IMG/VR virus record: IMGVR_UViG_3300033273_000658
Span: 32,001 to 96,000 of that record
Length of the DNA: 64,000 nucleotides
Source of the DNA: a virus
Strand: one strand, 5' to 3'
Under the pieces are notes generated by a model. It saw only the letters and a program-made list of their open reading frames with translations, was not told the DNA's origin and did no database searches. The number at the start of each line of letters is the position of its first letter. The stretch's first letter is position 1. A program made the translations under genes and the position numbers. Below are positions 17,843 through 62,028 of this stretch, one piece after another.

Positions 17843-17966
17843 AACGGTTTTTGAGTTAGGGTTTTCCGTTTAAAAAAACCCTTTCGTTTGGACAACTATT
17901 TCCTGGGCTGAAGGATTAGTTGGCGGTTTTTCGGGTTGCTTTTCCGTTGTTGAAAAAAACTTCCCC
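17843..17966 (+). ncRNA. Two tandem predicted H-type pseudoknots
   Basis: AACGG/CCGTT plus AGGGTTTT/AAAACCCT (17843-17882); a weaker related copy lies at 17921-17966. Confidence 0.45.
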
Positions 17967-17973
17967 TGTTTTC

Positions 17974-18002
17974 TTGACAGTATCAAGATAAAATGTTATT
18001 AT
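17974..18002 (+). promoter_or_regulatory. Sigma70 promoter for the ssb gene
   Basis: TTGACA-N17-TATTAT with TG. Confidence 0.7.
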
Positions 18003-18082
18003 AAAATGGGAGCAAGATTAAAACTCTGCTTACCTTAGTCTGAGAAGACAATAAACATCGCCTAACTAATGGAGAAACTAAC

Positions 18083-18835
18083 ATGGCACTTAATATTGAA
18101 CTAATGAAACAAAAACTTGCAAACTCACAAAACAAGAATGCAGGAAAAACAAATGATACTAAATGGCGACCATCAGAAGGAGACCAAACAATTCGAATCC
18201 TTCCAACCAAAGATGGAGACCCGTTCAAGGAATTCCACTTCCACTACAATGTAGGAAAGAATCCTGGTATCCTTTGTCCTAAAAAGAACTACGGCGAGCA
18301 CTGCCCTATTTGCGACTTTGCCTCCAATCTCTGGCGAGATGGTGTGGATAACAATGACGATCAAACTAAAAATGCTGCAAAGAAGTTATTCGCTCGTAAG
18401 CGTTACTACTCTCCAATCCTTGTCCGTGGTCAAGAGACCTCTGGTGTAAAGGTATGGGCTTACGGTAAGACTGCGTATGAGACACTTCTTGGTTATGTAT
18501 TGGATCCTGATTATGGAGACATTACCTCTGCCGAAACCGGAACTGACATCGTTCTTTCGTACACAGTTCCTGGCACACCCGGTTCTTTCCCAAAGACCCA
18601 ACTTAAACCTCGTCGCCGTCCCTCCGTACTATGTGATGAGGCAATCGCTGACTGTGATGCTCTTCTAGATAGTGTGCCCGACATCGAAGCACAATTTACA
18701 AGACTGTCATCTGAAGATATACAAGCTCTGTTGGACGACTATCTGTCTACGGATTCCTCCTCCGAAATGTCCTCCTCAGAAACTGCTAAGTACGGCAGTT
18801 CCGTAGATAAAAAGATTAGCGACTTTCTAAGTTAG
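18083..18835 (+). CDS. Single-stranded DNA-binding protein, T4 gp32-like
   Basis: IRILP, H..C...CPIC zinc ligands, GVKVWAYGK, DYGDIT...GTDI and acidic/Ser-rich tail. Confidence 0.85.
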   Translation: MALNIELMKQKLANSQNKNAGKTNDTKWRPSEGDQTIRILPTKDGDPFKEFHFHYNVGKNPGILCPKKNYGEHCPICDFASNLWRDGVDNNDDQTKNAAKKLFARKRYYSPILVRGQETSGVKVWAYGKTAYETLLGYVLDPDYGDITSAETGTDIVLSYTVPGTPGSFPKTQLKPRRRPSVLCDEAIADCDALLDSVPDIEAQFTRLSSEDIQALLDDYLSTDSSSEMSSSETAKYGSSVDKKISDFLS

Positions 18836-18843
18836 TGATTGTT

Positions 18844-18883
18844 CGCCTTGCCCCTTGGCGTTGTAAATAAAGGGGTATTTTTT
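18844..18883 (+). ncRNA. Predicted H-type pseudoknot/terminator hairpin
   Basis: CGCC/GGCG plus TGCCCCTT/AAGGGGTA, followed by a T run. Confidence 0.5.
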
Positions 18884-18910
18884 ATGACATTTAAACAACA
18901 GGAGGAAATA

Positions 18911-20065
18911 ATGTCCAATATTGATTTAACTGAATTCTCAAGACTTGAGAGTAGACTGAGCAACGCTCCATTTTCTGTCCACAAAGAGTTTATGAAAATT
19001 CTACGTGATGTATTGAAAGAAGGAAAAAATTCTTCTTTTCTTCAGAATGTAGATGGAACAACAGTTGATTGTAATTCTCACAACTCACAATGCAGAGCAA
19101 TCAACATTGACCCTAAGAACCTAGCAGAAATAAAAAATGATGCTGCAGCGAGAGGGATAGAAAACCCTATTTTCATTTATCAACTTCCATCAAACTCAAA
19201 GTACAAATTTGGATTGATCAATGGCAGACACAGAAACGAAGCTGGAACCAGTCTGCAAATAAATATACCGGCAGTCGTTATCTCTTATTCTGTTTTCACC
19301 AAGATAATTCCGATCATGTCAGAAATCCAAGCGATTTTAAATGACAACAAACCTTCAAAATCTAATAATGAAAATGATCTCAAAAAACACATTAGAACAA
19401 TTGTTGAAAGAGATGGCATAAATTTGGAGAACGATCTTCAATACGAAAGACTCTTAAGAAGGCTAGAATTTTGCCACAAAGGAATCAGTCGTAATGCCAT
19501 TAAGAATAATCTAACCCGGATTAAGAAGGCTATAAAGCAAGAACGATCTGATGTATTTTGTGCAAAAGGAGAAACTTTTAAGAAGTTGTACTCACAAAAC
19601 AACATTGTCACTCTGAATGAAGAGACAAAAGTTGTTTCAACAAGAGGCTCTTCTCTTGATCAAGAATGGCCAAGATCTGTAAGGCTAAAAGCAGAACATC
19701 CTAGAAGAAAACTTACATGGATTTATTCTGATAATAATAACAATGGAGATTCTCAATCCGTAATAGACTGTAGAAAATCCTTCTTCGAAAGACTGCACAA
19801 AACCGTTAAGTGCTTTAGCACGATCTACGGTAAAAACGTATTGCCTTTCGATACCTTGGTCATTGCTCCTCAGATAAAGAGTGAATTCACGTTCTTCTTT
19901 AATGATGAGGAAGTAACTTCGAAAGCTGAAGTTGTGAATGATCAAAAATGTTGGAAAAGAATAACTGCCCAACAAATTTTGCAAGCTTTCGAAGCAAAAA
20001 AATCTTATCGTGAAGAGTTTATCTTTACAAAAAAGATTTCTAAGAAAGATAAGAAAGTTAGCTAA
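18911..20065 (+). CDS. ParB/Srx N-terminal domain protein
   Basis: RGIENPIFI...LINGRHR motif; start moved to the ATG after GGAGG. Confidence 0.6.
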   Translation: MSNIDLTEFSRLESRLSNAPFSVHKEFMKILRDVLKEGKNSSFLQNVDGTTVDCNSHNSQCRAINIDPKNLAEIKNDAAARGIENPIFIYQLPSNSKYKFGLINGRHRNEAGTSLQINIPAVVISYSVFTKIIPIMSEIQAILNDNKPSKSNNENDLKKHIRTIVERDGINLENDLQYERLLRRLEFCHKGISRNAIKNNLTRIKKAIKQERSDVFCAKGETFKKLYSQNNIVTLNEETKVVSTRGSSLDQEWPRSVRLKAEHPRRKLTWIYSDNNNNGDSQSVIDCRKSFFERLHKTVKCFSTIYGKNVLPFDTLVIAPQIKSEFTFFFNDEEVTSKAEVVNDQKCWKRITAQQILQAFEAKKSYREEFIFTKKISKKDKKVS

Positions 20066-20070
20066 AATTA

Positions 20071-20100
20071 AAGCCATGGAGCAGGGCTTAAACTGCTCCA
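20071..20100 (+). ncRNA. Predicted H-type pseudoknot in the recA leader
   Basis: AAGCC-A-TGGAGCAG-GGCTT-AAA-CTGCTCCA with perfect 5 bp and 8 bp stems. Confidence 0.6.
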
Positions 20101-20118
20101 ACTTACAATGGAGAAACA

Positions 20119-21219
20119 ATGACTAAAGCAGGTAAAATTGACCTAAAAGCGATGCAAAAACTTGTTAACAAAAAGACCGGCTTAAACGTTGCTCACAACC
20201 TAAACGAAAATAATCCCACTATTGTGAAAGAGTGGATTCCGACAGGGTCTCGCTGGCTTGATTCTATTACATGTAGAGGAAGACTTGGTGGTATTCCAGT
20301 AGGAAAGATAACAGAGATTGCCGGACTATCTGGTGCCGGTAAATCATTCATGGCTGCTCAAATTGCTGCTAATGCTCAGAAGATGGGAAAGTTTCCTGTA
20401 TACTTTGATGCTGAATCTGCAATTGACCCAGAATTCTTGGAGAATGCCGGAATTGATACTCAAAACCTAATGTATGTTCAGGCAATCTCTGTTGAAAAAG
20501 TATTAGAAACAATTGAGACTCTTATCGATCAATACGAAGACACACAATTCTTGTTTATCTGGGACTCAATTGCTGCAACAAGTTCTGAAAAAGAACTTGA
20601 ATCAGATTTTAATCCTCAATCAACAATGTCCGTTAAGCCAAGAATCTTTGGCAAGGCATTTCCCAAACTAACTATTCCCTTGGCTAATGGACAACACACT
20701 TTGCTTCTGATAAACCAGTTGAAAACCAACATCAATACTCAGAACCCAATGGCTGCACTTATTGAGCCTTACATTGCTCCCGGTGGCAAAGCTATTGAAT
20801 ACTTCTGTTCTATGCGTATTTGGCTTACAAAGCGTAAATCAAAGGCAGCATACTTGCAAGATGATACTGGTCTTCGTATTGGTTCGGAAGTAAAGTGTAA
20901 ACTTCAGAAGTCTCGTTTCGGGACTGAAGGAAGAGAGTGCACATTCAAAATTCTATGGTCTGGTGGCGCTGCTATTCAAGATGAAGAGTCTTGGCTGTTA
21001 GCACTCAAATCCTCTGGAACCAAACGCTTGAAGTTATCAGGTGCATGGTATACTCTTGTTGATAAAGATGGAAAAGAAATGAAATTCCAAGGAAAACAAT
21101 GGAAGGCAAAGCTTCAAGATCCACATTTTAGACAAACAGTTCTAGATATTATGGATGAAGAGATTGTTAAGAAATTTGATTCCGAAGGTAAAAATTTTGG
21201 TGTGAGTGAAGACGACTAG
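20119..21219 (+). CDS. recA: RecA/UvsX recombinase
   Basis: IPTGS, GKITEIAGLSGAGKS, FDAESA, WDSIAA, INQLK and PGGKAIEY. Confidence 0.93.
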   Translation: MTKAGKIDLKAMQKLVNKKTGLNVAHNLNENNPTIVKEWIPTGSRWLDSITCRGRLGGIPVGKITEIAGLSGAGKSFMAAQIAANAQKMGKFPVYFDAESAIDPEFLENAGIDTQNLMYVQAISVEKVLETIETLIDQYEDTQFLFIWDSIAATSSEKELESDFNPQSTMSVKPRIFGKAFPKLTIPLANGQHTLLLINQLKTNINTQNPMAALIEPYIAPGGKAIEYFCSMRIWLTKRKSKAAYLQDDTGLRIGSEVKCKLQKSRFGTEGRECTFKILWSGGAAIQDEESWLLALKSSGTKRLKLSGAWYTLVDKDGKEMKFQGKQWKAKLQDPHFRQTVLDIMDEEIVKKFDSEGKNFGVSEDD

Positions 21220-21242
21220 TTTTGTTTTCATGTTTTTCTCCT

Positions 21243-21278
21243 GGCGGTGGGTTGTGGTTGGCTCACCGCCTTTTTTTT
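21243..21278 (+). terminator. Rho-independent terminator
   Basis: GGCGGTGGGTT...GGCTCACCGCC followed by T8. Confidence 0.85.
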
Positions 21279-21289
21279 ATTGTTTTTAC

Positions 21290-21318
21290 TTGACAAATTG
21301 AGATCAATATGATATAAT
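21290..21318 (+). promoter_or_regulatory. Consensus sigma70 promoter
   Basis: TTGACA-N17-TATAAT. Confidence 0.8.
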
Positions 21319-21337
21319 ATAAAAGGAGGAAGGAAAA

Positions 21338-21490
21338 ATGAATGATAAACTTTGGCTATTAGTTGATAGTGTTCACAAAAAACTATTGAGAGCGAGACTT
21401 TGGGCAACTTCGCTTGATGATTACAAACAAGACATTGAAGATGCGATAAAAGCATTGGAAGAGGCAAAAAGAAAGATGGAGGAAAAATGA
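21338..21490 (+). CDS. 50 aa hypothetical coiled-coil protein (not in ORF track)
   Basis: AGGAGG RBS; MNDKLWLLVDSVHKK...MEEK; ATGA overlap with the next gene. Confidence 0.65.
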   Translation: MNDKLWLLVDSVHKKLLRARLWATSLDDYKQDIEDAIKALEEAKRKMEEK

Positions 21491-21996
21491 GCGAGTGCCC
21501 TTATAAAAAAGATCTTAGTAGGTTTTTAGAGTTGGTTGTAAAACCAATGAAAGAGTTTAATGGATTTCCACCATGTCCATTTGCCGCTAAAGAATTGAAT
21601 CAAGATAAATTAATGATAGATGTTATAAACCCAGAAGAAACTGACATAATTAAAATGATAAAGAAATTAGAAGAATCAAATTATGACAGTGCTCTTCTTA
21701 TACAGAAAACAGAAAATCAGATTTCTGGAGCTGAGACAGGCAGTTATCAAAAGTTTTTGAATAAAATTCTAAAAGAATTCGGATACGAAAATTATAGGTG
21801 TATCTGTATGAATCCCAACGATCCCTTTGAATCAGATGGATACAACATAAGAAGTGAATCGCCGTACTTTTTGATAAACGTTGTAAAGAAAAATTTTTTA
21901 TTTGATGCTAATCGAAAAATGAAGAATACAAAGTACTATGACAAAATGAATGAAGAGTATTTAAATTATTTAAATGTAAAGAGGAGGAAAAAATGA
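21487..21996 (+). CDS. DUF1415-like protein
   Basis: PPCPFA motif and RSESPYFLINV. Confidence 0.5.
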   Translation: MSECPYKKDLSRFLELVVKPMKEFNGFPPCPFAAKELNQDKLMIDVINPEETDIIKMIKKLEESNYDSALLIQKTENQISGAETGSYQKFLNKILKEFGYENYRCICMNPNDPFESDGYNIRSESPYFLINVVKKNFLFDANRKMKNTKYYDKMNEEYLNYLNVKRRKK

Positions 21997-22331
21997 GAGC
22001 ATTATTTGCAATTATATTATTTACAGCAGCCCAGATTTTAGCTTGGTTTCAATCAAACTCTGGTATTATCGGAGAACCATTTAAATCAAATTATGTTTTA
22101 ATAGCTTTGATTTTTGGACCTATTGTATCCCTATTGTTTGCTCACGCAACAATAATGCTTTATGAGTCTATGCCTTTGTGGTCCATCAGGTTTGTAACAT
22201 TTGCGATAGGTTATTTAATTTTCATACCATTGACTTGGTATTTCTTGGGAGAAGAGGTGTTTACCCTTAAGAACATTTTATCGTTCTTGTTGTGTTGTGC
22301 TTTGATCTCAATACAGTTTTTCATGAAATAG
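21993..22331 (+). CDS. Small 4-TM membrane protein (DMT/SMR-like)
   Basis: Four hydrophobic helices and YFLGEE motif. Confidence 0.55.
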   Translation: MRALFAIILFTAAQILAWFQSNSGIIGEPFKSNYVLIALIFGPIVSLLFAHATIMLYESMPLWSIRFVTFAIGYLIFIPLTWYFLGEEVFTLKNILSFLLCCALISIQFFMK

Positions 22332-22339
22332 GAGGAGAA

Positions 22340-23290
22340 ATGAAAAGGGTTATGATTATTGATGGTCTCAACATGTTTTTGAGGTCATACATCAACGTTC
22401 CGTCAATGGATAAGCACGGAGCACCGAACGGAGGAACATACGGCTTCATGAAGTCGCTCCAAAAAATTTGCGGGATGTTCAGTCCAGATCAGGTTATTAT
22501 CTGTTGGGATGGACAAGGAGGCTCGCAAAAGCGCAAGCAAATGAACAGTGACTACAAAGCAGGTAGAGCACCTGTTCGTTTCAATCGGAGACTTATTGAC
22601 TTGTCACCAGAAGAAGCAGACAAGAATAAATACAATCAACAGTACCGTTTGATGGAGTATCTTAACGATCTTCCCATCATTCAAACAATGATTGATTATA
22701 TCGAAGCAGACGATTGTATTTCTTACATTTGTCAACATAAGAAATACGAAGATTGGGAGAAGCTGATAGTCTCCTCAGATAAGGATTTTTTCCAGCTAAT
22801 TTCAAAGAAAACCAAGCTGTATCGTCCGATACAAGACAAGGTGGTAGATTACCCTACCTTGCTTGAAGAACACAAAATTCACCCCAAAAATTTCGCATTA
22901 GCGAGAAGTTTGGTTGGAGATAAATCGGACAATCTTCCGGGTGTTCCGAGAGTCGGTTTGAAGACAGTCGCTGGTAAATTTACATTTCTAAAAGAAGACA
23001 AACAGTATGAAGTTGAAGACATTATGCAGCATTGTGAATCTTTAGATAAAATGCTTAAGGTTCACGAAAACATTTTAGAACATTCTCATCTAGTTGAGAA
23101 GAACTTTGAAATAATGCAACTATATAGTCCACTCATTTCTAATCTACATAAAAAGCAAATAAATTTTTCTTTGGAAGAGTTTGAGCCTGAGATGAATAAA
23201 CTAGAAATCATGAAAAAGCTCGTAGCAGACGGCATTAATGCAGGAAACTTTAATGTTTTGTTTAATGCAATGAAAAAAATAACTTTATAA
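22340..23290 (+). CDS. 5'-3' exonuclease/flap endonuclease (PolA N-terminal, T4 RNase H-like)
   Basis: IIDGLN, WDG, YKAGR, EADD, SSDKDF, GDKSDNLPGVPRVGLKT; start at the ATG after GGAGG. Confidence 0.92.
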   Translation: MKRVMIIDGLNMFLRSYINVPSMDKHGAPNGGTYGFMKSLQKICGMFSPDQVIICWDGQGGSQKRKQMNSDYKAGRAPVRFNRRLIDLSPEEADKNKYNQQYRLMEYLNDLPIIQTMIDYIEADDCISYICQHKKYEDWEKLIVSSDKDFFQLISKKTKLYRPIQDKVVDYPTLLEEHKIHPKNFALARSLVGDKSDNLPGVPRVGLKTVAGKFTFLKEDKQYEVEDIMQHCESLDKMLKVHENILEHSHLVEKNFEIMQLYSPLISNLHKKQINFSLEEFEPEMNKLEIMKKLVADGINAGNFNVLFNAMKKITL

Positions 23291-23300
23291 AAATAAAAAC

Positions 23301-23328
23301 TTGACAGACTTTTAAATTATGTTATAAT
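23301..23328 (+). promoter_or_regulatory. Sigma70 promoter
   Basis: TTGACA-N16-TATAAT with TG. Confidence 0.7.
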
Positions 23329-23349
23329 ACTTATAACATCGGAGGAAAC

Positions 23350-24708
23350 ATGAATAACAAAACGGAAACGTTTCAAAGGTTTGGCAAAGCCTTTCAAGAA
23401 AAATTCTGCCACATTATGCTTTCGGACAGACCATTTTGCGATCAAGTTGCAGAGGTTTTGAACGTGGAGTTTTTGGATTATGAATACCTTCGTGTATTTA
23501 CCCAGATTCTCTTTGAGCATAGAACAAAGTATAAGGTACACCCTTCTTATGAGATCATGGAATCAAGAATCAGGACAGAATGTAACAAGTATACAAAAGC
23601 ACTCAAAGAACAGCTTTTGCAATTCTACGCATCCATTCTTGCCACTGACCGTATTGACAACTCACAGTACATTAAGGATAGTTCAATCGACTTCTGTCGC
23701 AAACAAGTGCTTAAGGGCGCTATGATGAAGTCAGTTAAACTTATTAAGTCATCGTCATTCGATGAAATCCAGTCTGTTATTGAGGAAGCCTTGAAGCTAG
23801 GAACCGACAACAACTTTGGTCATGACTTCATCAAAGACTTTGAGGAACGATATACAATTACATCGCGAGATCCTGTTTCCACAGGTTTTGAACGCATTGA
23901 TGAGATTTGTAAGGGCGGTCTTGGTAAGTCTGAGTTAGGAGTTGTTATTGCACCAACAGGTGCTGGAAAGTCAATGGTATTGGTTCACTTAGGTTCCGAA
24001 GCGCTAAAGCAAGGCAAGACTGTTGTACACTACACATTGGAGTTACAAGATACGGTTGTTGGTAATCGTTATGATTCTTGCATTTCGGGTGTACCTTTGG
24101 GAGATCTCTTTCATAACAAACAGCAGGTTCTTTACAAAATTAAAGACATTCCTGGTCAACTTATTATAAAAGAGTATCCCACAAAGTCTGCATCAACAGA
24201 GACTATCAAGCAACACATCGAACGTCTTAAAAAACGTGGTATTGAGCCTGATATGATCATTGTTGATTATGCTGATCTTCTGCGACCTGTTCGTTCAACT
24301 GCTGAGAAGCGCTTTGATCTTGAGAACACTTATGAAGAGCTGCGAGCAATTGCTCAAATCTATAAGTGCCCTGTTTGGACTGCTTCCCAGACAAACCGTT
24401 CCGGTCTCAATGCAGAAGTTATCACCATGGAAGCTATTTCAGAAGCATTCAATAAGTGTTTCGTTGCAGACTTTATTTGTTCTTTGTCTCGTACTGTTCA
24501 AGACAAGCAAGCTAATAAAGGCCGCATGTTTATTGCAAAGAACAGAAATGGTCCCGATGGCCTTATATTCCCAGCGTTTGTTGACTGGTCGAATGTAAAC
24601 ATGAAGGTTTTAAACCAAGAAAGTGGAGAGTCTATCGCTGATGTTATCAAAGACTCAGATAGAAATACTCTAGACTTTCTTAAAGAAAAATATAAAAAAC
24701 ATAAATGA
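23350..24708 (+). CDS. Replicative DNA helicase (DnaB/gp41-like)
   Basis: APTGAGKS, TLEL, IIVDYADL, TASQTNR and KNRNGPDG. Confidence 0.92.
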   Translation: MNNKTETFQRFGKAFQEKFCHIMLSDRPFCDQVAEVLNVEFLDYEYLRVFTQILFEHRTKYKVHPSYEIMESRIRTECNKYTKALKEQLLQFYASILATDRIDNSQYIKDSSIDFCRKQVLKGAMMKSVKLIKSSSFDEIQSVIEEALKLGTDNNFGHDFIKDFEERYTITSRDPVSTGFERIDEICKGGLGKSELGVVIAPTGAGKSMVLVHLGSEALKQGKTVVHYTLELQDTVVGNRYDSCISGVPLGDLFHNKQQVLYKIKDIPGQLIIKEYPTKSASTETIKQHIERLKKRGIEPDMIIVDYADLLRPVRSTAEKRFDLENTYEELRAIAQIYKCPVWTASQTNRSGLNAEVITMEAISEAFNKCFVADFICSLSRTVQDKQANKGRMFIAKNRNGPDGLIFPAFVDWSNVNMKVLNQESGESIADVIKDSDRNTLDFLKEKYKKHK

Positions 24709-24717
24709 GGATTTAAA

Positions 24718-26691: not shown

Positions 26692-26699
26692 GAGGCAAA

Positions 26700-33303: not shown

Positions 33304-33498
33304 ATGGTAGGAAGATTAGTAAAATGGATTCACGATGAGATGCCAACAAATCTTTGTGTAATAATTGATGATTTAGGGTACAAAGAAGATCATATAGTTT
33401 TATCCGAAGAAGAAGAAAATGAAATGCTTTTTCTTTGTTATGACTTTGTAACAAACGAACAATTTTATGCTTTGGAGAATGAACTCCAGTTTATTTAG
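33304..33498 (+). CDS. Small SH3-like hypothetical protein (MVGRLVKW)
   Basis: GGAGG RBS; its stop codon overlaps the first G of the tmRNA. Confidence 0.6.
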   Translation: MVGRLVKWIHDEMPTNLCVIIDDLGYKEDHIVLSEEEENEMLFLCYDFVTNEQFYALENELQFI

Positions 33499-33883
33499 GG
33501 GGCGCAATGGTTTCGACAGGGTAGACATGAAGGACAAGTGCAAGTAGGTAAGAACGACCTTAACAGTTTAAAAAAATTATAATTGCCAATAATAACAATT
33601 ATTTCGAAGTAGCTCAAGCAGCTTAATCGGGTGGTTTCTTTATACCATCAGTCCAAATAAAGATAGTCAGATGGGTGAGACGATAAAGTTATAAGGGAGT
33701 CTAGCGGACTTTGCCGTACCTAAAATGGTTACCCTGTTGGTAGCAGGTGGAACTCTAAGGCTACACAAGAGTTGGTTGGAAAAAAGGTAGCTACTTTGTT
33801 TGTTTAGAGAAACAAAATAAACTTGTGAACGACTTTAATTTATGATGCGCTGGACAGCAGTTCAATTCTGCTCGCCTCCACCA
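33498..33883 (+). ncRNA. ssrA: tmRNA, one-piece; tag (A)ANNNNYFEVAQAA* at 33585-33626
   Basis: 5' GGGGGCG..GGTTTCGAC; 3' T-arm AGCAG-TTCAATT-CTGCT then CGCCTCC-ACCA; G3:U70 alanine identity; resume codon GCC after ATAATT; tag ends in AA. Confidence 0.96.
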
Positions 33884-54451: not shown

Positions 54452-54468
54452 ACACAACAGGAGACAAC

Positions 54469-55589: not shown

Positions 55590-55655
55590 CTTTTTTCTTG
55601 ACAAAATAATTCCAATCCTATAAGGTATAAACATAACATCAAAACAGGAGACGAC

Positions 55656-56576
55656 ATGAAACTAGGTTACGCATGTATCAACAAAGGACTATCTGAACAG
55701 TCCATCAAAAACCGTATCACAACCAACCGTACATTTCGCAAGGCTACCTTTGAAGAGAAAGGTTTACCTCATGCGTCTGCTATCTTCTTACAGAACAGTA
55801 AAGACTTGCTTAAGATCCTCCAATGGAACGAGCAACACAACATCAAGTTCTTTCGCTTGTCCTCGCAGATTGTATCGTGGGCTACGGAGTATCAGCTCAC
55901 TGACTTGCCAGACTACGATCAGATTGAAGAAGTTCTTTTTGAGTGTGGTCTATTCATCGAAGAGCATGGTATGCGTGTCACATCACATCCCGATCACTTT
56001 GTCAAACTTGCGTCACCCAATGAGGATGTTGTTCGCAATTCTATTCGTGACTTGGAGATTCATGGTGAGATCTTTGATCTATTGTGCCTACCTCGTACCC
56101 ACTATGCCAAACTGAACATTCATGTTGGCGCGTCCTATGGTGACAAACCCAAGGCTATTGACAACTTTTGTCGTAACGTAGATAGACTATCCGATGCAGT
56201 ACGCTCTCGTTTGACCGTAGAGAATGATGATCGTGCCTCCTTGTACTCTACCCTAGACCTCATGGAAGTTTACAAGCGTGTCGGTACTCCCATCGTACAT
56301 GACCTACACCACCATGGGTTCTGCACTGGTGGTCTATCCAACCCCGATGCTCTTACACTTGCAGTGTCTACATGGGGCGATACTACCCCCGTGGTACACT
56401 ACTCCCAATCCCGTGCCATAGAACACAATGACACGTCCATCAAGGCACATGCACACTCAGACTCATACTGGACACCAGTGGATACATACGGACATGATGT
56501 GGATGTGATGCTTGAATGCAAGCACAAAGAGCTAGGTTTATTCAAGATGCGAGAACTATTAGGAAAAACTATTTAA
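55656..56576 (+). CDS. uvsE: UV damage endonuclease (UvsE/UVDE)
   Basis: LGYACIN, FFRLSS, SHPDHF, NIHVG, ENDD, DLHHH, HAHSD and MLECKHKE. Confidence 0.93.
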   Translation: MKLGYACINKGLSEQSIKNRITTNRTFRKATFEEKGLPHASAIFLQNSKDLLKILQWNEQHNIKFFRLSSQIVSWATEYQLTDLPDYDQIEEVLFECGLFIEEHGMRVTSHPDHFVKLASPNEDVVRNSIRDLEIHGEIFDLLCLPRTHYAKLNIHVGASYGDKPKAIDNFCRNVDRLSDAVRSRLTVENDDRASLYSTLDLMEVYKRVGTPIVHDLHHHGFCTGGLSNPDALTLAVSTWGDTTPVVHYSQSRAIEHNDTSIKAHAHSDSYWTPVDTYGHDVDVMLECKHKELGLFKMRELLGKTI

Positions 56577-56590
56577 CAAAGGAGACAACC

Positions 56591-56839
56591 ATGAAAACAG
56601 AAAGAGAACAAGCAATACAAAACCTTATGAAAATAATGCCTGACCATACTGACAGTGCGTTTATAGTTAAACAAGAGGGTGATGATAGTGGCTCGTACCT
56701 ATGTGTGTATGTAGAGCGCACAGAGACAGGTGCAGAGGTATGCAAGACCATCCCAACACCGTTTGAGGGATGGAGAGTGGTGCATGTGTGGTGTCCAGAT
56801 GGGTTCATCAAGCACATACTGGAGAGAACGAGAGAATGA
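56591..56839 (+). CDS. Hypothetical protein (82 aa)
   Basis: AAGGAG RBS. Confidence 0.65.
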   Translation: MKTEREQAIQNLMKIMPDHTDSAFIVKQEGDDSGSYLCVYVERTETGAEVCKTIPTPFEGWRVVHVWCPDGFIKHILERTRE

Positions 56840-57045
56840 AAATAGGCGATCTTGTTGTGTTATCGGCCAAAGGTGCGAAGTTAAAGCACAACCACAATTA
56901 TTATCGTGGCTTTGGAATTATTTTAGAGGTTTACCCAGCGAAAGGATACTATGACTTCGGTATACAGTGGTTTTGCGAGGGTAGATCCACACACAACAAG
57001 AGAGTTTGGTTTAAGAGATACGAGATAAAGAAATTAAAACCTTGA
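56836..57045 (+). CDS. Microprotein cassette 20 (69 aa, MKIGDLV)
   Basis: ATGA overlap; family motifs. Confidence 0.8.
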   Translation: MKIGDLVVLSAKGAKLKHNHNYYRGFGIILEVYPAKGYYDFGIQWFCEGRSTHNKRVWFKRYEIKKLKP

Positions 57046-57129
57046 TTATGAAAAAACTTCAATTTTTTTCTTGACAAAATAATTGTAACCCTATAAGCTA
57101 TAAACACCACACCGAACAACGGAGAAAAA

Positions 57130-57327
57130 ATGATTGGAAAACTAGTAAAACGAAAAGAAAAAAAACACCACAAGTTTTGGGGAGTAGGTATAGTTTTAGA
57201 TTACAGATCCACAGGAAGATTTTACCCCAGTACAGAACTGAAAGTGCATTGGGTTTCCTGTGAAATCGGTTCACAGATTTCTAGCATTGACATTGGGCTT
57301 GTGGAGTTTTTAGATGAAAGCAGGTAG
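57130..57327 (+). CDS. Microprotein cassette 21 (65 aa, MIGKLV)
   Basis: GIVLD...KVHW; follows a promoter cassette. Confidence 0.75.
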   Translation: MIGKLVKRKEKKHHKFWGVGIVLDYRSTGRFYPSTELKVHWVSCEIGSQISSIDIGLVEFLDESR

Positions 57328-57460
57328 TGTAGTAGAAAATACTTTTGGAGACATTGGTATCGTCATTCGACAGATAGGTGTCGCAGATAGGTGGCTCATT
57401 CAATGGGCTAGTGGAGAAGTTTACGGTATCAATGGATACCAACTAGAGGTGATAGCATGA
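57314..57460 (+). CDS. Microprotein cassette 22 (48 aa, MKAGSVV...LEVIA)
   Basis: Junction repeat. Confidence 0.8.
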   Translation: MKAGSVVENTFGDIGIVIRQIGVADRWLIQWASGEVYGINGYQLEVIA

Positions 57461-57651
57461 AGATAGGTGATTTAGTAAAAGTGACACACAAAGGTAATCG
57501 TACGATTGGATACATCAAAAAGTTTGGACGTTATGGGAAGAGTTATGTTATGGTCGTGTACTTGACTGGCTCTCATGTAGGCAAAGAGCGGTTCTTCTCA
57601 GAAAAAGAAGTCCTACCAATCAATCAACTCATTGGAGAGGAAAGAGCATGA
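57457..57651 (+). CDS. Microprotein cassette 23 (64 aa)
   Basis: MKIGDLVKVTHKG. Confidence 0.8.
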   Translation: MKIGDLVKVTHKGNRTIGYIKKFGRYGKSYVMVVYLTGSHVGKERFFSEKEVLPINQLIGEERA

Positions 57652-57827
57652 AGATAGGTGATTTAGTTATAGTAAAAGATGTTTTGGGCTACAACACGTA
57701 CATGCAGAACCTTGCCGGTCACATTGGTGTAATTGTCAAGGAAAGGTACAATGAGCATTGGGTGAAAGTCCACATACTAGGAAAAACAAAAAGGATCAGC
57801 ATATATGATTTGAAGGTGATAAAGTGA
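57648..57827 (+). CDS. Microprotein cassette 24 (59 aa, MKIGDLV...LKVIK)
   Basis: Junction repeat. Confidence 0.8.
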   Translation: MKIGDLVIVKDVLGYNTYMQNLAGHIGVIVKERYNEHWVKVHILGKTKRISIYDLKVIK

Positions 57828-58000
57828 AGATAGGAACACTATGCGAAGTGGTTGCAATAGCAAGTCATTTTCCATCACAGTTTGGTGATTTAGTGGTCAT
57901 AACAGGATACACACATGGTGTATACATCACTGGAACAAACTTGAAAACAGGCAAAACACATCATTACAACCCAACAGAACTCAAAGAGGTGAAACAATGA
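57824..58000 (+). CDS. Microprotein cassette 25 (58 aa, GTG start, MKIGTLC...LKEVKQ)
   Basis: GTGA overlap after AAGGTGAT. Confidence 0.7.
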   Translation: MKIGTLCEVVAIASHFPSQFGDLVVITGYTHGVYITGTNLKTGKTHHYNPTELKEVKQ

Positions 58001-58296
58001 ACGTATACGAAGTTACAAAAACAAGACCATGGGATGGTAGAGAAACAATAAGTATTCACATGACACGAAAAGGTGCTTTGCAAGTGGCTTGCATAGAGGG
58101 TTTGGATGCACTTTTGGGCTGTTTTCATGAAGATGATGAGGATTTAGCATGGGCAGAAAAGAGTCTTGAAACACTTGAAAACCCAGATCATACGCTCAAA
58201 ATAAAAGAACTGGAAACTATGTTCGATAAATGCGAAGAACTTCTTTGGAGCATAGAAATGGAGGTAGAGGTGCATGAATACGCACTCAAACCATAA
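57997..58296 (+). CDS. Acidic hypothetical protein
   Basis: 99 aa; coupled. Confidence 0.7.
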   Translation: MNVYEVTKTRPWDGRETISIHMTRKGALQVACIEGLDALLGCFHEDDEDLAWAEKSLETLENPDHTLKIKELETMFDKCEELLWSIEMEVEVHEYALKP

Positions 58297-58379
58297 AAAA
58301 ATTATTTTCAACTTTTTTCTTGACAAAACAATTCCAACCCTATAAGGTATAAAGACCAACCCAAACAAACGGAGACAAC

Positions 58380-59309
58380 ATGAACATTCATGAAAACAAG
58401 AACAGCTCAAACAGAAGTAAAGCAACATGTGGCTACTGCCGAGAAGAGGGGCACAACCAATACCAATGTCCACACGTCAAAGGTGATTGGGAGAACTTCC
58501 TATCAAGACTGGAAATTCCCAAAGACAAAGATGGTAACATCATCAGACGTGGCTATAATTACGCTGTATGGAGTTATAGTGGCAACTTCGATCCTCTCAC
58601 TATGGACATAGCCAATAATGCTCTTGCCTCATGGTTTCGTAACTGCAAGAAAGCATACCTCGTCCAGAAAGAACGTGGGTTCAATCTTGAACACAAAACC
58701 AAGCGCAAAGCAGTAAATAGAACATGTGGCTTTTGTGGTGGCAAAGATCATACAAGGCGCAACTGTACCAAGATGGAACAGTTTCTCAAAGACTGCTACA
58801 AAGCCAATGAGAACTGGCGAATGGCTGCCTACAAAGATCTTGTGTTGGATGGTGGCTTATCTGTTGGGGCTTGTATCAAGGTCTCTTATGAAACAGGCAA
58901 CTGGAGTAATAGAGAGACTAAAATGAGCACCGGTATCATCACCAAGATAAATTGGAACACTGTAAATGTGTTCTCCGGTATGAACAAACGTCACAACGAT
59001 GCTCATTCTCCGATAGAGGTTTCTGTACTGGTAGATGGTGAAACAAGACGACTTGATAATCTTGCTGACAAGTTCAACACTGTCGGAGAGAATGGTAGAA
59101 TACATTCCTTTTGGAATGGTGCCCCAGCATGTTCACTGCATACAGTTATCACCAACTCCCCTACTCCCCTACCCCAAGAGTGGATTACTTCCTACAAGGA
59201 ATCCTTTGGAACTCTTGTCAAGAAGAGAACTTATGAGCAACTACAAAACGGCTTGAAGTCCGATTGGCGACCTGCTAACCTTGTAGCTCACATTGACGCA
59301 TGGAAATAA
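58380..59309 (+). CDS. Protein with two CCHC zinc knuckles
   Basis: CGYCREEGHNQYQC and CGFCGGKDHTRRNC. Confidence 0.75.
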   Translation: MNIHENKNSSNRSKATCGYCREEGHNQYQCPHVKGDWENFLSRLEIPKDKDGNIIRRGYNYAVWSYSGNFDPLTMDIANNALASWFRNCKKAYLVQKERGFNLEHKTKRKAVNRTCGFCGGKDHTRRNCTKMEQFLKDCYKANENWRMAAYKDLVLDGGLSVGACIKVSYETGNWSNRETKMSTGIITKINWNTVNVFSGMNKRHNDAHSPIEVSVLVDGETRRLDNLADKFNTVGENGRIHSFWNGAPACSLHTVITNSPTPLPQEWITSYKESFGTLVKKRTYEQLQNGLKSDWRPANLVAHIDAWK

Positions 59310-59310
59310 C

Positions 59311-59493
59311 ATGCGTTATTCTCCCCTACATACAGGTGATCTCATACACATGTATGGATTGGAGAGCATGATAGGTGTGGTTGTGCGTGAAAGGCGCGAG
59401 GGTGTGTATGATATACACATCTTCCAAGACAATCGCACATTCACATTCCCTAGGGGTATGCTAGAAAAACTTAAAACAACGGAGATAACATGA
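59311..59493 (+). CDS. SH3/KOW-like microprotein (HTGDLI...IGVVV...MLEKL)
   Basis: Family motifs. Confidence 0.6.
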   Translation: MRYSPLHTGDLIHMYGLESMIGVVVRERREGVYDIHIFQDNRTFTFPRGMLEKLKTTEIT

Positions 59494-59744
59494 AATATTA
59501 TTTACTAACCATAACAATCTATGATGGAGATCATGAGTATTGGGATAAAGCCATCGTCTTTATGAAAGATACATCAGATGAACACAAAGTGTTAAAAGCT
59601 TGGTCTGGTCATGATGATCTTGTTTATGATGAAGATCTCAGGGTGTACATGTCACCATATACCTATCGTGGCTATCGACTATATCATGCACAAGAGATAG
59701 AAGAAAACGACCTCCCAATACTACGCAAGTACCATATTGGGTAA
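59490..59744 (+). CDS. Hypothetical protein
   Basis: 84 aa; CGGAG RBS. Confidence 0.7.
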   Translation: MKYYLLTITIYDGDHEYWDKAIVFMKDTSDEHKVLKAWSGHDDLVYDEDLRVYMSPYTYRGYRLYHAQEIEENDLPILRKYHIG

Positions 59745-59830
59745 ACGGACAAAAAATTTCAACTTTTTTCTTGACAAAATAATTCCAATCCTATAAGCTA
59801 TAAACACTAACCCAAACAAACGGAGTGACC

Positions 59831-60334
59831 ATGAACGCACTAACCAAAAGACAAAACGAAGTCTACAACGACATAATAGATTTTATCATTCACAATCATA
59901 GATCCCCTAGTTATCGTGAGCTAGGTGATAGACTTGGAATTAAAAGCACAAATGGTGTCTTTGACCATGTAAAGGTTCTTAAACAGAAAGGCCTTTTAAG
60001 AAATGAAACAAAGATAACACCTGTTTCTATGCCTAAAAAACAAACAACTAGTGTTTCTCCGTCATGTATTGGGTTAAACAAGACTCAAAAACTACTATTA
60101 TTCACAAGATTATTGACAAAGATAGGTTCAATGCCAAAAGATGAAATCTTATCTAAGTATGGAATCTGCGAAAGAACTTGGAGACGTTGGAAAAAAGATA
60201 TGCATGGAGCCGGTATTGCTGTTTATACATGGCGATGTAAAAAAACAAAGACCTCCTTGGTGGGTACACCCCATGCCTATGTCCAAGCTATGATTGATGA
60301 AATGAATGAAAAATTAAACAAAAGGAGTAAATAA
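59831..60334 (+). CDS. LexA DNA-binding domain fused to a second HTH, lacking the S24 peptidase
   Basis: LTKRQ.EV...SPSYRELGDRLGIKSTNGVFDHVKVLKQKGLL; C-terminal KYGICERTWRRWKKDM. Confidence 0.8.
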   Translation: MNALTKRQNEVYNDIIDFIIHNHRSPSYRELGDRLGIKSTNGVFDHVKVLKQKGLLRNETKITPVSMPKKQTTSVSPSCIGLNKTQKLLLFTRLLTKIGSMPKDEILSKYGICERTWRRWKKDMHGAGIAVYTWRCKKTKTSLVGTPHAYVQAMIDEMNEKLNKRSK

Positions 60335-60468
60335 TGATTCACCACAACGCATTTTATATGTTCCTCATAAATACAGGAATAGTGCTATTGTCAGCTTATT
60401 TCTTGGATAGATGGGCAACCTACACCCAAAGAAAGCCAATTTCCAAAAAAAATAAAAAAAATACTTGA
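60334..60468 (+). CDS. 44 aa single-TM peptide
   Basis: AGGAG RBS, TAATG coupling, hydrophobic helix and basic tail. Confidence 0.5.
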   Translation: MIHHNAFYMFLINTGIVLLSAYFLDRWATYTQRKPISKKNKKNT

Positions 60469-60492
60469 CAAAATAATTTCAACCCTATAAGG

Positions 60493-60906
60493 TATAAACA
60501 TCTTCACAACGAAGAACTTTCAACAACAACGGAGACAACATGTCATTTACCGACCAACAACTAAAACAACTAGGCACGTATGAGATACAAAATCTATCAG
60601 ATGAAGAACTCAAAGAACTTACTGTTTCACAATTGGAAATCATCAAAGATACTTTACAAGATGAACGAGACGAACTTGCAAACGAATACAATACTGGCGA
60701 CCCTCTTTGCTATCCCCCTGACTGGTATGATTACCACGTATATCCTCTTGATAGTGCAATCTCAAAGATCGAAGATCTCATGAAAGACGATGAAAATTCC
60801 GATGAAGATTCATGGTATTAAAAAAACTTTAACTTTTTTCTTGACAAAGCTTTTCAACCTAATTATTATATAAACATCTTCACAGCGAAGAACTTTCAAC
60901 AACAAC
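60493..60906 (+). repeat. 38 nt duplicated leader with TCTTC-ACARC-GAAGA hairpin (60493-60530 and 60869-60906)
   Basis: One mismatch, located in the loop. Confidence 0.85.
60540..60821 (+). CDS. Highly acidic small early protein
   Basis: About 25 D/E against 6 K/R in 93 aa; has its own promoter. Confidence 0.7.
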   Translation: MSFTDQQLKQLGTYEIQNLSDEELKELTVSQLEIIKDTLQDERDELANEYNTGDPLCYPPDWYDYHVYPLDSAISKIEDLMKDDENSDEDSWY

Positions 60907-60926
60907 AAAACTAACGGAGGCCTCCC

Positions 60927-61988
60927 ATGGCTATTGACTTCAAAACATTCTCTAACGTAATCAACCCTATCCTTAACGCAAAGTTCCCTGTCCTCGTTCG
61001 TGGTCGGCACGGTATCGGTAAATCTACCATCGTTTACCAAAAAGCCAAAGAACTCGGTCTGCCTGTCGTAGAGCGTAGAGCATCCCAAATGACTGAGGGG
61101 GACTTGCTTGGCTTGCCAAAGCAATCAGACAATGATGTAACTGAGTGGTGTCCACCAAAGTGGTTCAAGACTGCTTGTGATACCCCTGTTGTCCTCTTCC
61201 TTGATGAAGTAGACCGTGCAACACTTGAAGTCCGTCAAGGTATCTTTGAACTATGCGATAGCCGTAAGATTGCCGGTCGCAGTCTTCATCCCGACACCCT
61301 TATCTTTGCTTGTGTCAATGGCGGAGAACATGGTTCTCAATACCAAGTAGGTGAGATGGATCCCGCAGAACTTGACCGCTACACTGTCTTTGACGTAGAA
61401 CCTACGGTAGAAGATTGGCTTAACTGGGCAAAGGGTAATGTTGCCCAAGAAATCTGGGATTTCATCAATCAGAACCACAATCATCTTGAACACAATGATG
61501 ACTACGAGCCTAACAAGGTTTACCCATCAAGACGTTCTTGGGAACGACTATCCACGACTTTGTCTGGAATGGGCGATCAGATTGAGGGTTCATCTGTAAC
61601 CTACCATATCGCTTGCTCTTTCATTGGCTTTGAGGGTGCAGTGGCATTCAAAGACTTCCTTGACAAATACGATCGTCAAGTCACCATCGAAGATCTTCTA
61701 GATGATGGTAAGTTTGACAAGATCAAAGGTTGGAAAATCAACGATCACAATGCCATGGTCGAAAAGATGAAAGCAAAGAACATCTTTGCAGACCGTCTAT
61801 CCGACACACGTCTTGATAACCTTGCAAAGTACTTCTTGCAACTTCCATCCGAGATTGTCATGGTTCTATGGCAGTCCATGGCTCAGACCGATGAGTCTAC
61901 CTACAACATCGCTAAACTTTGGGCAATCGAAGTGGATGGTACATCTATTCAAGACTATGTTGTCGGTATCCTCAACGCAGGAAACTAA
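60927..61988 (+). CDS. MoxR-like AAA+ ATPase
   Basis: GRHGIGKS, LFLDEVDRA, DPAELDRY and PSRRSW. Confidence 0.88.
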   Translation: MAIDFKTFSNVINPILNAKFPVLVRGRHGIGKSTIVYQKAKELGLPVVERRASQMTEGDLLGLPKQSDNDVTEWCPPKWFKTACDTPVVLFLDEVDRATLEVRQGIFELCDSRKIAGRSLHPDTLIFACVNGGEHGSQYQVGEMDPAELDRYTVFDVEPTVEDWLNWAKGNVAQEIWDFINQNHNHLEHNDDYEPNKVYPSRRSWERLSTTLSGMGDQIEGSSVTYHIACSFIGFEGAVAFKDFLDKYDRQVTIEDLLDDGKFDKIKGWKINDHNAMVEKMKAKNIFADRLSDTRLDNLAKYFLQLPSEIVMVLWQSMAQTDESTYNIAKLWAIEVDGTSIQDYVVGILNAGN

Positions 61989-61994
61989 GCCACA

Positions 61995-62028
61995 AAGGCT
62001 TTGGCTCCTTGTGCCTTGAAACAAGGAG
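61995..62028 (+). ncRNA. Predicted H-type pseudoknot
   Basis: AAGGC/GCCTT plus CTCCTTGT/ACAAGGAG. Confidence 0.5.

Follow-up and report, generated by a model that had tools for sequence, protein, structure and literature searches.

The 64,000-nt stretch analysed here, referred to as the window, comes from an uncultured marine phage of 141 kb; all features described lie on its plus strand and are given by window position. The gene order is promoter, WYL_2-like gene, two candidate pseudoknotted terminators, promoter, gp32, a further candidate pseudoknotted terminator, an optional cargo gene, recA and an ordinary strong terminator. The first promoter (17437-17465), of sigma-70 type with a perfect TTGACA-17-TATAAT, precedes a small WYL_2/Sm-like gene of 82 aa (17572-17820). 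The WYL_2-like name given to this gene in a preliminary description of the sequence has a Pfam match behind it (E=6.4e-05), which at 23.6 bits stays below the curated cut-off of 26.7. The second sigma-70-type promoter (17974-18002; TTGACA-17-TATTAT, a perfect consensus in its L001 equivalent) stands before the gene of a gp32-like single-strand-DNA-binding protein (18083-18835), a name well supported by Pfam (PF08804, E=1.5e-17). Between the two, a conserved 5' leader (18010-18082) consists of hairpin H1, the motif CCUUAG, hairpin H2 and an A-rich tract up to the Shine-Dalgarno (SD) sequence. This leader is context and lies outside the claimed pseudoknot family.

The 384-aa ORF downstream of gp32 (18911-20065), previously labelled ParB-like, belongs to no Pfam family and gives a marginal PHROG match to a group of unknown function. 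It is an inserted cargo gene, absent from 80 gp32 relatives and with one homologue, 39% identical, in L159. The gp32-recA gap is a hot spot for insertions; its length varies between 56 nt and 2 kb, and it carries unrelated cargo including a tRNA-Thr. The RecA/UvsX-like recombinase gene follows (20119-21219; PF00154, E=1.8e-36) and the gp32-recA unit is closed by a terminator with a 12-bp stem, a tetraloop and T8 (21243-21278), which has no pseudoknot potential. In L001, perfect promoters are found only before gp32 and past the strong terminator of recA; the 64-nt gp32-recA gap has no sigma-70-type promoter there, phage-specific promoter types being possible.

Four elements of the topology S1-L1-S2-S1'-L3-S2' had been reported in the window, and their sequences and coordinates are correct as written. 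Two of them, sites 1 and 2, are found inside the replication/recombination gene block. Site 2 (18844-18883) starts 8 nt after the gp32 stop codon and comprises S1 CGCC (18844-47, 4 bp), L1 T, S2 TGCCCCTT (18849-56, with one G.U), S1' GGCG (18857-60), a 9-nt L3 and S2' (18870-77). In the RNA, L1 is U, S2 UGCCCCUU, L3 UUGUAAAUA and S2' AAGGGGUA, followed by U6. An 8-bp stem with a T6 tail is the make-up of an intrinsic terminator. Some metatranscriptome contigs end at 18872-18881, positions that are ends of contigs and not of raw reads, and one 543-nt contig, a weak indication, spans gp32 and the element into recA.

The order S1-L1-S2-S1'-L3-S2'-U-run is kept 3' of gp32 in 63 parsed relatives, with 31 distinct S1 duplexes. 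Among 33 non-redundant representatives the S1 stacking energy averages -8.93 kcal/mol, compared with -3.9±0.57 when upstream sequences are shuffled or partners permuted and -3.2±0.45 when loops are shuffled. None of 2000 controls matches the observed mean, a count that does not read as a probability since the relatives share phylogeny, and the observed values are slightly favoured by a parser that picked S2 and S1 jointly. E1 is -7 or lower in 26 of the 33 representatives (controls: mean 3-6, maximum 14). Close lineages display compensatory switches, from GGTC/GACC to AAGTC/GACTT and from AGTGT/ACACT to AGTATT/GATACT. The median geometry is an S1 of 5 bp, an L1 of 2 nt (1-2 nt in 37/63, range 0-5), an S2 of 7 bp (6-7 bp in 33/63; 8 bp in the window copies if a terminal U-A and a G.U are included), no L2 (absent in 42/63 and at all four window sites) and an A-rich L3 (56% A, 4% C). 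The 8 nt that follow the element are 73% T. At sites 2 and 3 of the window, a 1-nt L1 across an 8-bp S2 is at the steric limit; where L1 is 0, as in some relatives, the outer S2 pairs must therefore open. Helix extensions of G.U type far outnumber those of A.C type in both S1 (25 vs 4) and S2 (29 vs 4), thus indicating that the structure forms in the sense-strand RNA. By a rough estimate, folding into the pseudoknot rather than only the S2 hairpin gains approximately 3-5 kcal/mol.

Site 1 (17843-17890) begins 22 nt after the stop codon of the WYL_2-like gene. It is composed of S1 AACGG (17843-47), a 10-nt L1, S2 AGGGTTTT (17858-65), S1' CCGTT (17866-70), L3 TAAA and S2' AAAACCCT (17875-82), which in the RNA gives a U-rich L1, S2 AGGGUUUU, S1' CCGUU, L3 UAAA and S2' AAAACCCU. 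Its tail in the window is weak and U-rich (TTCGTTT); its relatives possess U-runs, as in intrinsic terminators. S1 covaries in the 3' element of the WYL gene, with a score of 0.326 on an unfitted MAFFT alignment versus 0.151±0.019 for 500 shuffles, none of which reaches it, and at most 0.197 for slid controls; the pair types CG, UA, AU, GU and UG all occur. Of 27 sequences, 26 keep the three U-A pairs at the junction unchanged. L1 opens with an invariant U-run parallel to these pairs, a layout predicted from the sequences to be the arrangement required for U.A-U base triples. The covariance model R1, built on site 1, scores the element at 49.4 bits. It also finds, at 17922-17972 (22 bits, E=0.16), the weaker copy that had been placed near 17921. 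This is a decayed tandem copy of site 1, GGCGG-U5-...UUUU-CCGUU-...A7-CUUCCCC-U-run, whose S2 is broken by U.U mismatches; L018 and L025 are among the relatives in which the second copy is intact.

Sites 3 and 4 are a different, non-terminating class of conserved hairpins, in which a short, unproven S1 may form. Site 3 (20071-20100), 5 nt after the stop codon of the cargo ORF, contains S1 AAGCC (20071-75), L1 A, S2 TGGAGCAG (20077-84), S1' GGCTT (20085-89), AAA and S2' CTGCTCCA (20093-100). In the RNA, S2 UGGAGCAG mimics an SD, S1' is GGCUU and S2' CUGCUCCA is an anti-SD, the 3' part of which is complementary to the recA SD region UGGAG (20109-20113). Site 4 (61995-62028), 6 nt after the stop codon of an AAA-ATPase gene, earlier named MoxR and supported as an AAA_5 ATPase, contains S1 AAGGC (61995-99), L1 TTTGG, S2 CTCCTTGT (62005-12), S1' GCCTT (62013-17), GAA and S2' ACAAGGAG (62021-28). 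Neither site has a U-run in the window; both lie 10-20 nt before the next gene's ribosome-binding site, and in each the stem pairs an SD-like with an anti-SD-like strand. Both motifs are single-copy. Site 3 is conserved in sequence and occurs nowhere but between gp32 and recA. S1 shows no covariation among the relatives of either site, just a core of 3-4 bp being retained. The fourth S1 pair of site 3 is uncompensated in four relatives. At site 4 the core GGC/GCC is kept, the outer S1 pairs are lost without compensation in half of 10 sequences, and a UGG/CUA extension of S2 is possible that clashes with S1.

The decisive evidence on whether these elements form one family is comparative: as read from the related sequences, S1 covaries at sites 1 and 2 and not at sites 3 and 4. 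The preliminary description of four H-type pseudoknots holds in this respect for the first two sites, which are conserved and covary, and not for the other two. Its measurements are accurate, with an S2 of 8 bp at all four sites and starts 22, 8, 5 and 6 nt past the stop codons of sites 1 to 4, and so is its view of an uncharacterised RNA motif: Rfam gives nothing at the gathering threshold except tmRNA, and noise only at E<=5 over 17400-20200. It overlooked that sites 1 and 2 are intrinsic terminators with U-runs. The stems said to be fully covarying among the four sites do not covary, because the sites are not homologous copies of each other. Nor is the family dispersed, four of the five elements lying within 2.3 kb around gp32 and R1 detecting only the WYL-gp32 junction, with a tandem pair in the 141-kb genome and a single copy in each complete relative. 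Within the genome, an S1 of at least 5 bp occurs in 12 of 339 plus-strand hairpins and in 7 of 335 on the other strand, a weak excess. A clean GC-rich 5-bp S1 at the first base of the loop is found in 3 of 54 intergenic hairpins for about 0.3 expected, a rough and post hoc figure. Large-loop terminators elsewhere in the clade have S1 pairing at the shuffled rate (9/63). The pairing is specific to the two loci flanking gp32, which corrects the idea of a genome-wide regulon, and nothing points to an antitoxin-RNA mimic. The other two roles that had been suggested, nuclease block and protein-binding element, may apply.

We favour, with moderate confidence, the explanation that sites 1 and 2 are leaky Rho-independent terminators built as compact H-type pseudoknots, which cap the mRNAs and meter read-through into recA. 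It builds on a demonstrated topology, its conservation and covariation, its specificity for the sense strand and for this locus, and the operon layout. The GC-rich terminator hairpin, S2, would carry an unusually wide loop whose first 3-7 bases (S1') pair with S1 a few nt upstream of the hairpin, the remainder of the loop, L3, being rich in A, which fits a strand placed in the S1 minor groove. Such a clamp could give the plentiful mRNAs of gp32 and WYL a stable, exonuclease-resistant 3' end. The element would terminate partly and also set the level of read-through into recA, which, lacking its own promoter, would be supplied in this way. No T4 message is more stable than that of gene 32 (PMC3014915), which makes a 3' cap that stabilises the gp32 message plausible by analogy. 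As a counterpoint, 3' capping of general use would be expected at other highly expressed genes, yet no enrichment is seen. Intrinsic terminators usually pass for simple hairpins; in this abundant clade of marine phages, extensive compensatory change backs a pseudoknotted one, its terminator hairpin being one stem of the pseudoknot. Its specificity to the genes around the single-strand-DNA-binding protein (SSB) leads to a testable model of how a phage may stabilise and ration its SSB and recombinase messages.

An unlikely reading is that the pseudoknots are protein operators that bind or nucleate the gp32-like SSB or the Sm/WYL_2-like protein and repress recA or the cargo on read-through transcripts. 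The mechanism is documented in T4, where gp32 binding is nucleated at a pseudoknot and spreads cooperatively along an A/U-rich tract to cover the ribosome-binding site (PMC535899, PMC3014915), and the geometry here fits CPK1, the type whose defining example is the T2/T6 gene 32 pseudoknot (PMC11262651). The restriction of the pairing to the two terminators flanking gp32, not shared by other terminators of the clade, also speaks for an operator, as does the A/U-rich linker of about 10 nt that precedes the recA SD in cargo-less relatives. This linker is, however, far shorter than the unstructured T4 tract of more than 40 nt, and the site-1 elements are upstream of the gp32 promoter. The structured 5' leader of gp32, with its A-rich tract to the SD, would be a more natural operator. 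The stem sequences moreover vary freely, and any recognition would therefore be by shape alone.

It is very unlikely that the gp32 3' element is an attenuator sensing translation, with the clamp and efficient termination arising only when the gp32 mRNA is untranslated and recA read-through coupled to gp32 translation and autorepression. A ribosome terminating at the stop codon of gp32 has the 5' strand of S1 inside its footprint, since the stop-to-S1 spacer has a median of 8 nt and measures 3-12 nt in 48 of 63 relatives; recA would depend on read-through, and the U-tracts are often interrupted and hence weak terminators. Against it are the 21-30 nt spacers of one clade and the short spacers to be expected anyway in compact phage genomes. 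A regulated attenuator more broadly, in which the S1 clamp would need a ribosome-free 5' strand or free SSB would bind, so that RecA/UvsX-like output tracks gp32 translation and hence the ssDNA load, is quite improbable in our judgement. If true, it would be a new coupling of SSB autoregulation to recombinase supply through a terminator pseudoknot.

Plain hairpins in vivo are as unlikely as the translation-sensing attenuator; the S1 complementarity would then be a by-product, produced at sites 3 and 4 by chance and sequence conservation. The lack of a genome-wide S1 excess, the uncompensated pairs of sites 3 and 4 and the competing extension at site 4 agree with it. The controls come nowhere near the covariation at sites 1 and 2, however, and sites 3 and 4 keep a 3-bp S1 core invariant beside a variable spacer and L1. 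Least probable of all, conserved borders for gene-cassette swaps like the PeSLs described in T4-type phages (PMC2839356), with RNA folding secondary, would account for the cargo of the gp32-recA gap and for the conservation at sites 3 and 4, which starts exactly at S1 behind differing upstream genes. Such joints need sequence identity, whereas the gp32 and WYL terminators change sequence and keep their pairing, a signature of selection on RNA structure, and such borders are compatible with pseudoknot-clamped terminators rather than an alternative to them.

Ordinary intrinsic terminators, of which that at 21243 is a textbook example, have the same GC-rich stem and U-run at gene ends. The loops here are instead 8-20 nt long, not 3-5 nt, and pair upstream in a covarying manner. 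A simple terminator scan missed sites 1 and 2, which flags a class that standard terminator finders miss. Telomerase RNA, the SAM-II and preQ1-II riboswitches and ENE-type elements are triple-helix pseudoknots with U.A-U major-groove triples. The site-1 family, with predicted triples, shares their layout in that its L1 U-run is parallel to the S2' A-run from the junction, its L3 is rich in A and its three U-A pairs are invariant; it differs in having no homology to them and a different biological setting, and we know of no ligand or poly(A) partner for it. PeSLs, the mobile, regulatory promoter-early stem-loop cassettes of T4-type phages (PMC2839356), are likewise small terminator/promoter modules that border exchanged genes in plastic regions, and the gp32-recA gap behaves like one of these regions. 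They are simple, sequence-conserved stem-loops present as many near-identical copies per genome, whereas the elements here number one or two and their stems covary.

The operator of T4 gene 32 is a 5' leader element 67 nt before the start codon, followed by an unstructured tract of more than 40 nt with UUAAA repeats and the ribosome-binding site, to which gp32 binding was demonstrated (PMC535899, PMC3014915). The elements described here, which show no sequence similarity to it, lie either downstream of gp32 or ahead of its promoter, a separate conserved leader holding the operator position, and their S2 is itself the terminator hairpin, followed by a U-run. The CPK1 fold has coaxial stems, no intervening loop and a short L1 crossing the major groove of an S2 of 6-7 bp (PMC11262651). 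The gp32 3' relatives resemble it in their median L1 of 2 nt and usual absence of L2, which would let the stems stack coaxially, and their S2, 7 bp in the median, is inside the CPK1 range in 33 of 63; the site-1 family, with an L1 of 5-12 nt, departs from the 1-2 nt of CPK1. Compensatory change in two stems, as required of CPK1, is found at sites 1 and 2 and is missing in S1 of sites 3 and 4. The likeness to the T2/T4 gene 32 pseudoknot that had been proposed is borne out by the compact H-type geometry of the gp32 3' medians. As in T2, T4 and RB69, a compact H-type pseudoknot adjoins a gp32-family gene in an intercistronic position just past the stop codon of the upstream gene. The link between gene 32 and a pseudoknot reaches well beyond the T-even phages.

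The elements examined here lie in a single virus contig of 141,005 bp (the window being its bases 32001-96000), with a G+C content of about 37.5% and genes on the plus strand. Megablast and tblastn searches of the region found no close relative among isolate phages; the best isolate RecA match is in Microcystis phage Mel-JY01 (35%) and the best ones to the gp32-like single-strand-DNA-binding protein are in Mel-JY01 and Flavobacterium phage immuto (33-35%). Marine relatives of the gp32-like gene number at least 250 in IMG/VR, and 80 of these loci were fetched (69-97% amino-acid identity). Perfect 12/12 consensus sigma-70 promoters at 17437, 21290 and 23301 (TTGACA-17/16-TATAAT, extended TG), together with a sigma-70-type promoter at 17974 (TTGACA-17-TATTAT), mark off short transcription units within the replication module. 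The first precedes the WYL_2-like gene (17572-17820), which is followed by site 1 (17843) and a second copy of this element. The promoter of the gp32 unit at 17974 comes next, then a conserved leader, the gp32-like gene (18083-18835), site 2 (18844), a cargo ORF encoding 384 aa (18911-20065), site 3 (20071), and recA (20119-21219), closed by an ordinary strong terminator at 21243 and followed by the promoter at 21290. Site 4 (61995) lies after an AAA-ATPase gene. A phage-encoded tmRNA is found at 33498-33883 (Rfam RF00023, 101.9 bits; tag peptide ANNNNYFEVAQAA).

The gp32-recA gap (window 18836-20118; loci L001-L080) is an insertion hot spot: many relatives have a gap of 56-72 nt, others one of up to about 2 kb that holds unrelated cargo. 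The 384-aa product of the window cargo ORF belongs to no family and has one homologue (contig L159, 39% identity); it was not found in the other gp32 loci. A tRNA-Thr(UGU) gene is located inside the gap of relatives L002 and L005 and, by sequence, of L004.

The four sequences are exactly as first described, with S1 starting 22, 8, 5 and 6 nt after the stop codons at sites 1 to 4, within the 5-22 nt reported. Their reading as H-type pseudoknots stands for sites 1 and 2, where S1 covaries. These two are, on comparative sequence grounds, real pseudoknot terminators, that is, intrinsic terminators combined with a predicted pseudoknot of the CPK1 type. The hairpin modules at sites 3 and 4 are conserved, but their short S1 is unproven.

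The hairpin 3' of the gp32 stop changes repeatedly in sequence among relatives and keeps its plan: S1, a short L1, S2, S1', an A-rich L3, S2' and then a U-run, S1' starting at the 5' end of the loop or at most two bases inside it. Since MAFFT alignment A1 of these gp32 3' elements put differing S1 types out of register, a structural parser and permutation controls were used. The 63 parsed relatives have 31 distinct S1 duplexes (among them CGCC/GGCG, GGTC/GACC, AAGTC/GACTT, ATTCGT/GCGAAT, ACCG/CGGT, AGGGT/ACCCT, GAGTG/CACTT, AGTGT/ACACT, AGTATT/GATACT, CACC/GGTG, AAGCC/GGCTT and GAGCGCC/GGCGCTT), with a median geometry of 5 bp for S1, 2 nt for L1, 7 bp for S2, 0 for L2 and 9 nt for L3. L3 is 56% A and 4% C, and the 8 nt after S2' are 73% T. 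The mean S1 stacking energy of 33 non-redundant representatives is -8.93 kcal/mol, compared with -3.89±0.55 when the upstream sequence is shuffled, -3.16±0.45 when the loop is shuffled and -3.90±0.58 when partners are permuted among sequences; the observed value was reached in 0/2000 trials of each control, and a cruder earlier scoring gave the same answer. Helix extensions of the G.U type far outnumber those of the A.C type (25 vs 4 in S1, 29 vs 4 in S2), which argues for selection on the sense-strand RNA and not on duplex DNA.

Two further features surround the gp32 stop. In one clade (L034-L056, L074, L076, L080) a conserved GUCCUCCUGUG lies between the stop and S1; part of it is identical to the anti-SD end of 16S rRNA, it is complementary to the next gene's AGGAG, and it may form an SD-sequestering long-range stem around the terminator. 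In the window, gp32 ends with TAG TGA, then TTG (18833-18841), and TAGTGATTG is kept in several subclades even when the terminator sequence downstream differs. In T4, an RNase E site lies near the stop codon of gene 32 (PMC3014915), and a putative processing site in the 18833-18841 region is conceivable.

At site 1, a clearly homologous element is found in the relatives, in single or double copy, of the form NNNGG, U-run, S2 ending UUU(U), CCNNN, ...AAA, S2' starting AAA(A), then U-run. A plain MAFFT alignment of 27 elements has 81% of cells paired in the named pseudoknot, vs 70.5±1.5 in shuffles, and a covariation score of 0.326 vs 0.151±0.019 that none of 500 shuffles reached; slid controls were all lower (maximum 0.197). 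The outer two S1 pairs are of CG, UA, AU, GU and UG types, as in AACGG/CCGTT, TTCGG/CCGAA, GCCGG/CCGGC, TACGG/CCGTA, TAAGG/CCTTA, ATGG/CCAT and TTGG/CCAA. The three junction-adjacent S2 pairs are U-A in 26/27 elements, and L1 always starts with Us. The course of L1 in an H-type fold, from the junction through the S2 major groove and parallel to the A-run of S2', is the geometry of U.A-U triples; we infer from it that the family may form a U.A-U triplex. The weaker copy seen near 17921 proved to be a decayed member (17922-17972) with U.U mismatches in S2, scoring 22 bits with R1, the covariance model of the family. Two tandem elements of the family (GG-U5 ... UUUU-CC ... AAAA) are also present on the minus strand of an unrelated 6-kb viral contig (L195:869-971), 3' of a P22-like portal gene and an ORF of 74 aa; in the second element S1 is 6 bp and S2 8 bp, and there is no U-run.

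The site-3 motif, (A)GCC-N1-4-GGAGYAN-GGC(U/A)U-...-CUGCUC, is confined to the gp32-recA interval of the clade, directly 5' of the recA SD or directly 3' of the gp32 terminator; it stands ahead of the inserted tRNA-Thr in L002, L004 and L005 and in tandem with the gp32 terminator in relative L023. Behind unrelated cargo genes, the first bases of its conserved block are those of the S1 strand, and L1, the linker, is variable; the GCC/GGC core is therefore constrained. Four relatives have an uncompensated A.A or U.U at the fourth S1 pair, and S2 hardly varies; judged by these alignments, site 3 shows conservation, not covariation. S2 pairs an SD mimic, UGGAG, with an anti-SD, CUCCA, whose complementarity to the recA SD 9 nt downstream was confirmed and is conserved, so that the anti-SD could alternatively pair with that SD.

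Site 4 was compared in 10 sequences: eight from metagenome contigs, plus those of L109 and the window. All of them share S1' GCCUU and the GGC core of S1; 8/10 retain the fourth S1 pair and 5/10 the fifth, and none of the changes is compensated. The conserved block starts at (A)GGC, also behind a different upstream gene in L351. Additional UGG/CUA pairing across a bulge could lengthen S2, and L1 would then be too short for S1. A competing hairpin, AAGCC-acaaa-GGCUU (61987-62001), overlaps the S1 strand, but the eight metagenome relatives do not share it. A pseudoknot at site 4 is unproven, and plain hairpins only are the rival reading of both sites 3 and 4.

None of the four sites is a copy of another, therefore their sequence differences are not covariation in the strict sense, and the "fully covarying stems" of the preliminary description do not hold among them. 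Nor is there a dispersed family or regulon. R1 finds only the two tandem site-1 copies in the 141-kb genome and at most one clear copy in each complete 185-190-kb relative, the two clear hits in these both being at the WYL-gp32 junction; outside the clade L195 is the one clear case. Among 259 non-redundant terminator-like hairpins pooled from all loci and the whole genome, large-loop terminators with an S1 score of at least 10 amount to 22/33 after gp32 and 6/9 after WYL. In AAA-ATPase loci and the whole genome they are 9/63, which equals the shuffled expectation of 13.6%. A naive genome-wide pseudoknot scan (S2 at least 7 bp, S1 at least 5 bp) retained 12/339 plus-strand vs 7/335 minus-strand hairpins, no clear excess over the opposite strand, and a GC-rich 5-bp S1 paired from the first loop base occurs in 3 of 54 intergenic hairpins (17858, 20077, 62005); the within-genome case for non-randomness is modest. 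A low-complexity site-1 pattern in IMG/VR gave the fold in 6/116 stretches among the matches listed, 2 of them known relatives. A stricter pattern found 25 out-of-clade contigs, none passing R1, and a site-4 stem scan of viral contigs found nothing beyond one known relative. The motif is indeed uncharacterised in that no Rfam family matches the pseudoknot elements; no feature supporting an antitoxin-RNA mimic was found. The original observation is partly confirmed.

Cargo-free relatives have the start of recA 56-72 nt downstream of gp32, and no sigma-70-type promoter is found between the two genes, the unit being flanked by perfect consensus promoters and ended by a strong tetraloop terminator. 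Judged by this layout, recA would have to be transcribed through the pseudoknot terminator, which would therefore be leaky. Interruptions are frequent in the U-run of this terminator, and one metatranscriptome contig spans gp32 into recA, weakly suggesting read-through; the metatranscriptome runs cover 6-8% of the window's words, as contigs carrying no RNA ends, strand or level, and the lack of contigs over 19008-19945 was taken as uninformative. We prefer the reading in which the wide loop of the terminator is clamped by S1 together with the A-rich L3, and to this clamp a U.A-U triplex may add at site 1; by a rough Dirks-Pierce-type estimate, the pseudoknot is 3-5 kcal/mol more favourable than the S2 hairpin on its own. 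Such a clamp would give a mechanically robust 3' end to the abundant gp32 and WYL messages, and the element would let a set fraction of polymerases pass.

Locus specificity and geometry would also suit a protein operator of the T4 kind (PMC535899, PMC3014915), but gp32 owns a conserved leader that resembles an operator, and site 1 precedes the promoter. A ribosome-sensing attenuator is favoured by the stop-to-S1 spacer, whose median is 8 nt, although one clade has spacers of 21-30 nt. Recombination joints of the PeSL type (PMC2839356) fit the insertion hot spot and not the covariation. A stimulator of stop-codon read-through or -1 frameshifting was rejected given the tandem gp32 stops in the window and many relatives, no slippery heptamer being seen upstream of the gp32 stop, and so was a dimeric DNA-binding protein site, as the arms change but keep pairing, with G.U-type extensions in large excess over A.C-type ones.

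The gp32 leader (18010-18082) is conserved in 66/66 distinct relatives and consists of a covarying 5'-terminal hairpin H1, an invariant CCUUAG, a small hairpin H2 (GUCU/AGAC, covarying to GGG/CCC, GCC/GGC and GAC/GUC) and an A-rich tract leading to the SD; RNAalifold returned no pairs on its alignment because this is gappy. In function it is a likely counterpart of the T4 gene 32 operator. It may also be one of the 12 candidate structured RNAs that a 2023 catalogue places immediately 5' of GP32 genes; according to that catalogue, Rfam lacks a model of the gene 32 pseudoknot (PMC10690425). In the distant isolates Mel-JY01 and immuto the two genes are adjacent, only 8 and 2 nt apart and without a terminator between them, so the gp32-recA synteny is old. 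The pseudoknot terminator is specific to the clade and looks like an addition that would uncouple gp32 and recA protein levels. The mRNA of T4 gene 32 is the most stable T4 message (PMC3014915), and by this parallel the pseudoknot terminator would stabilise the 3' end of the gp32 message.
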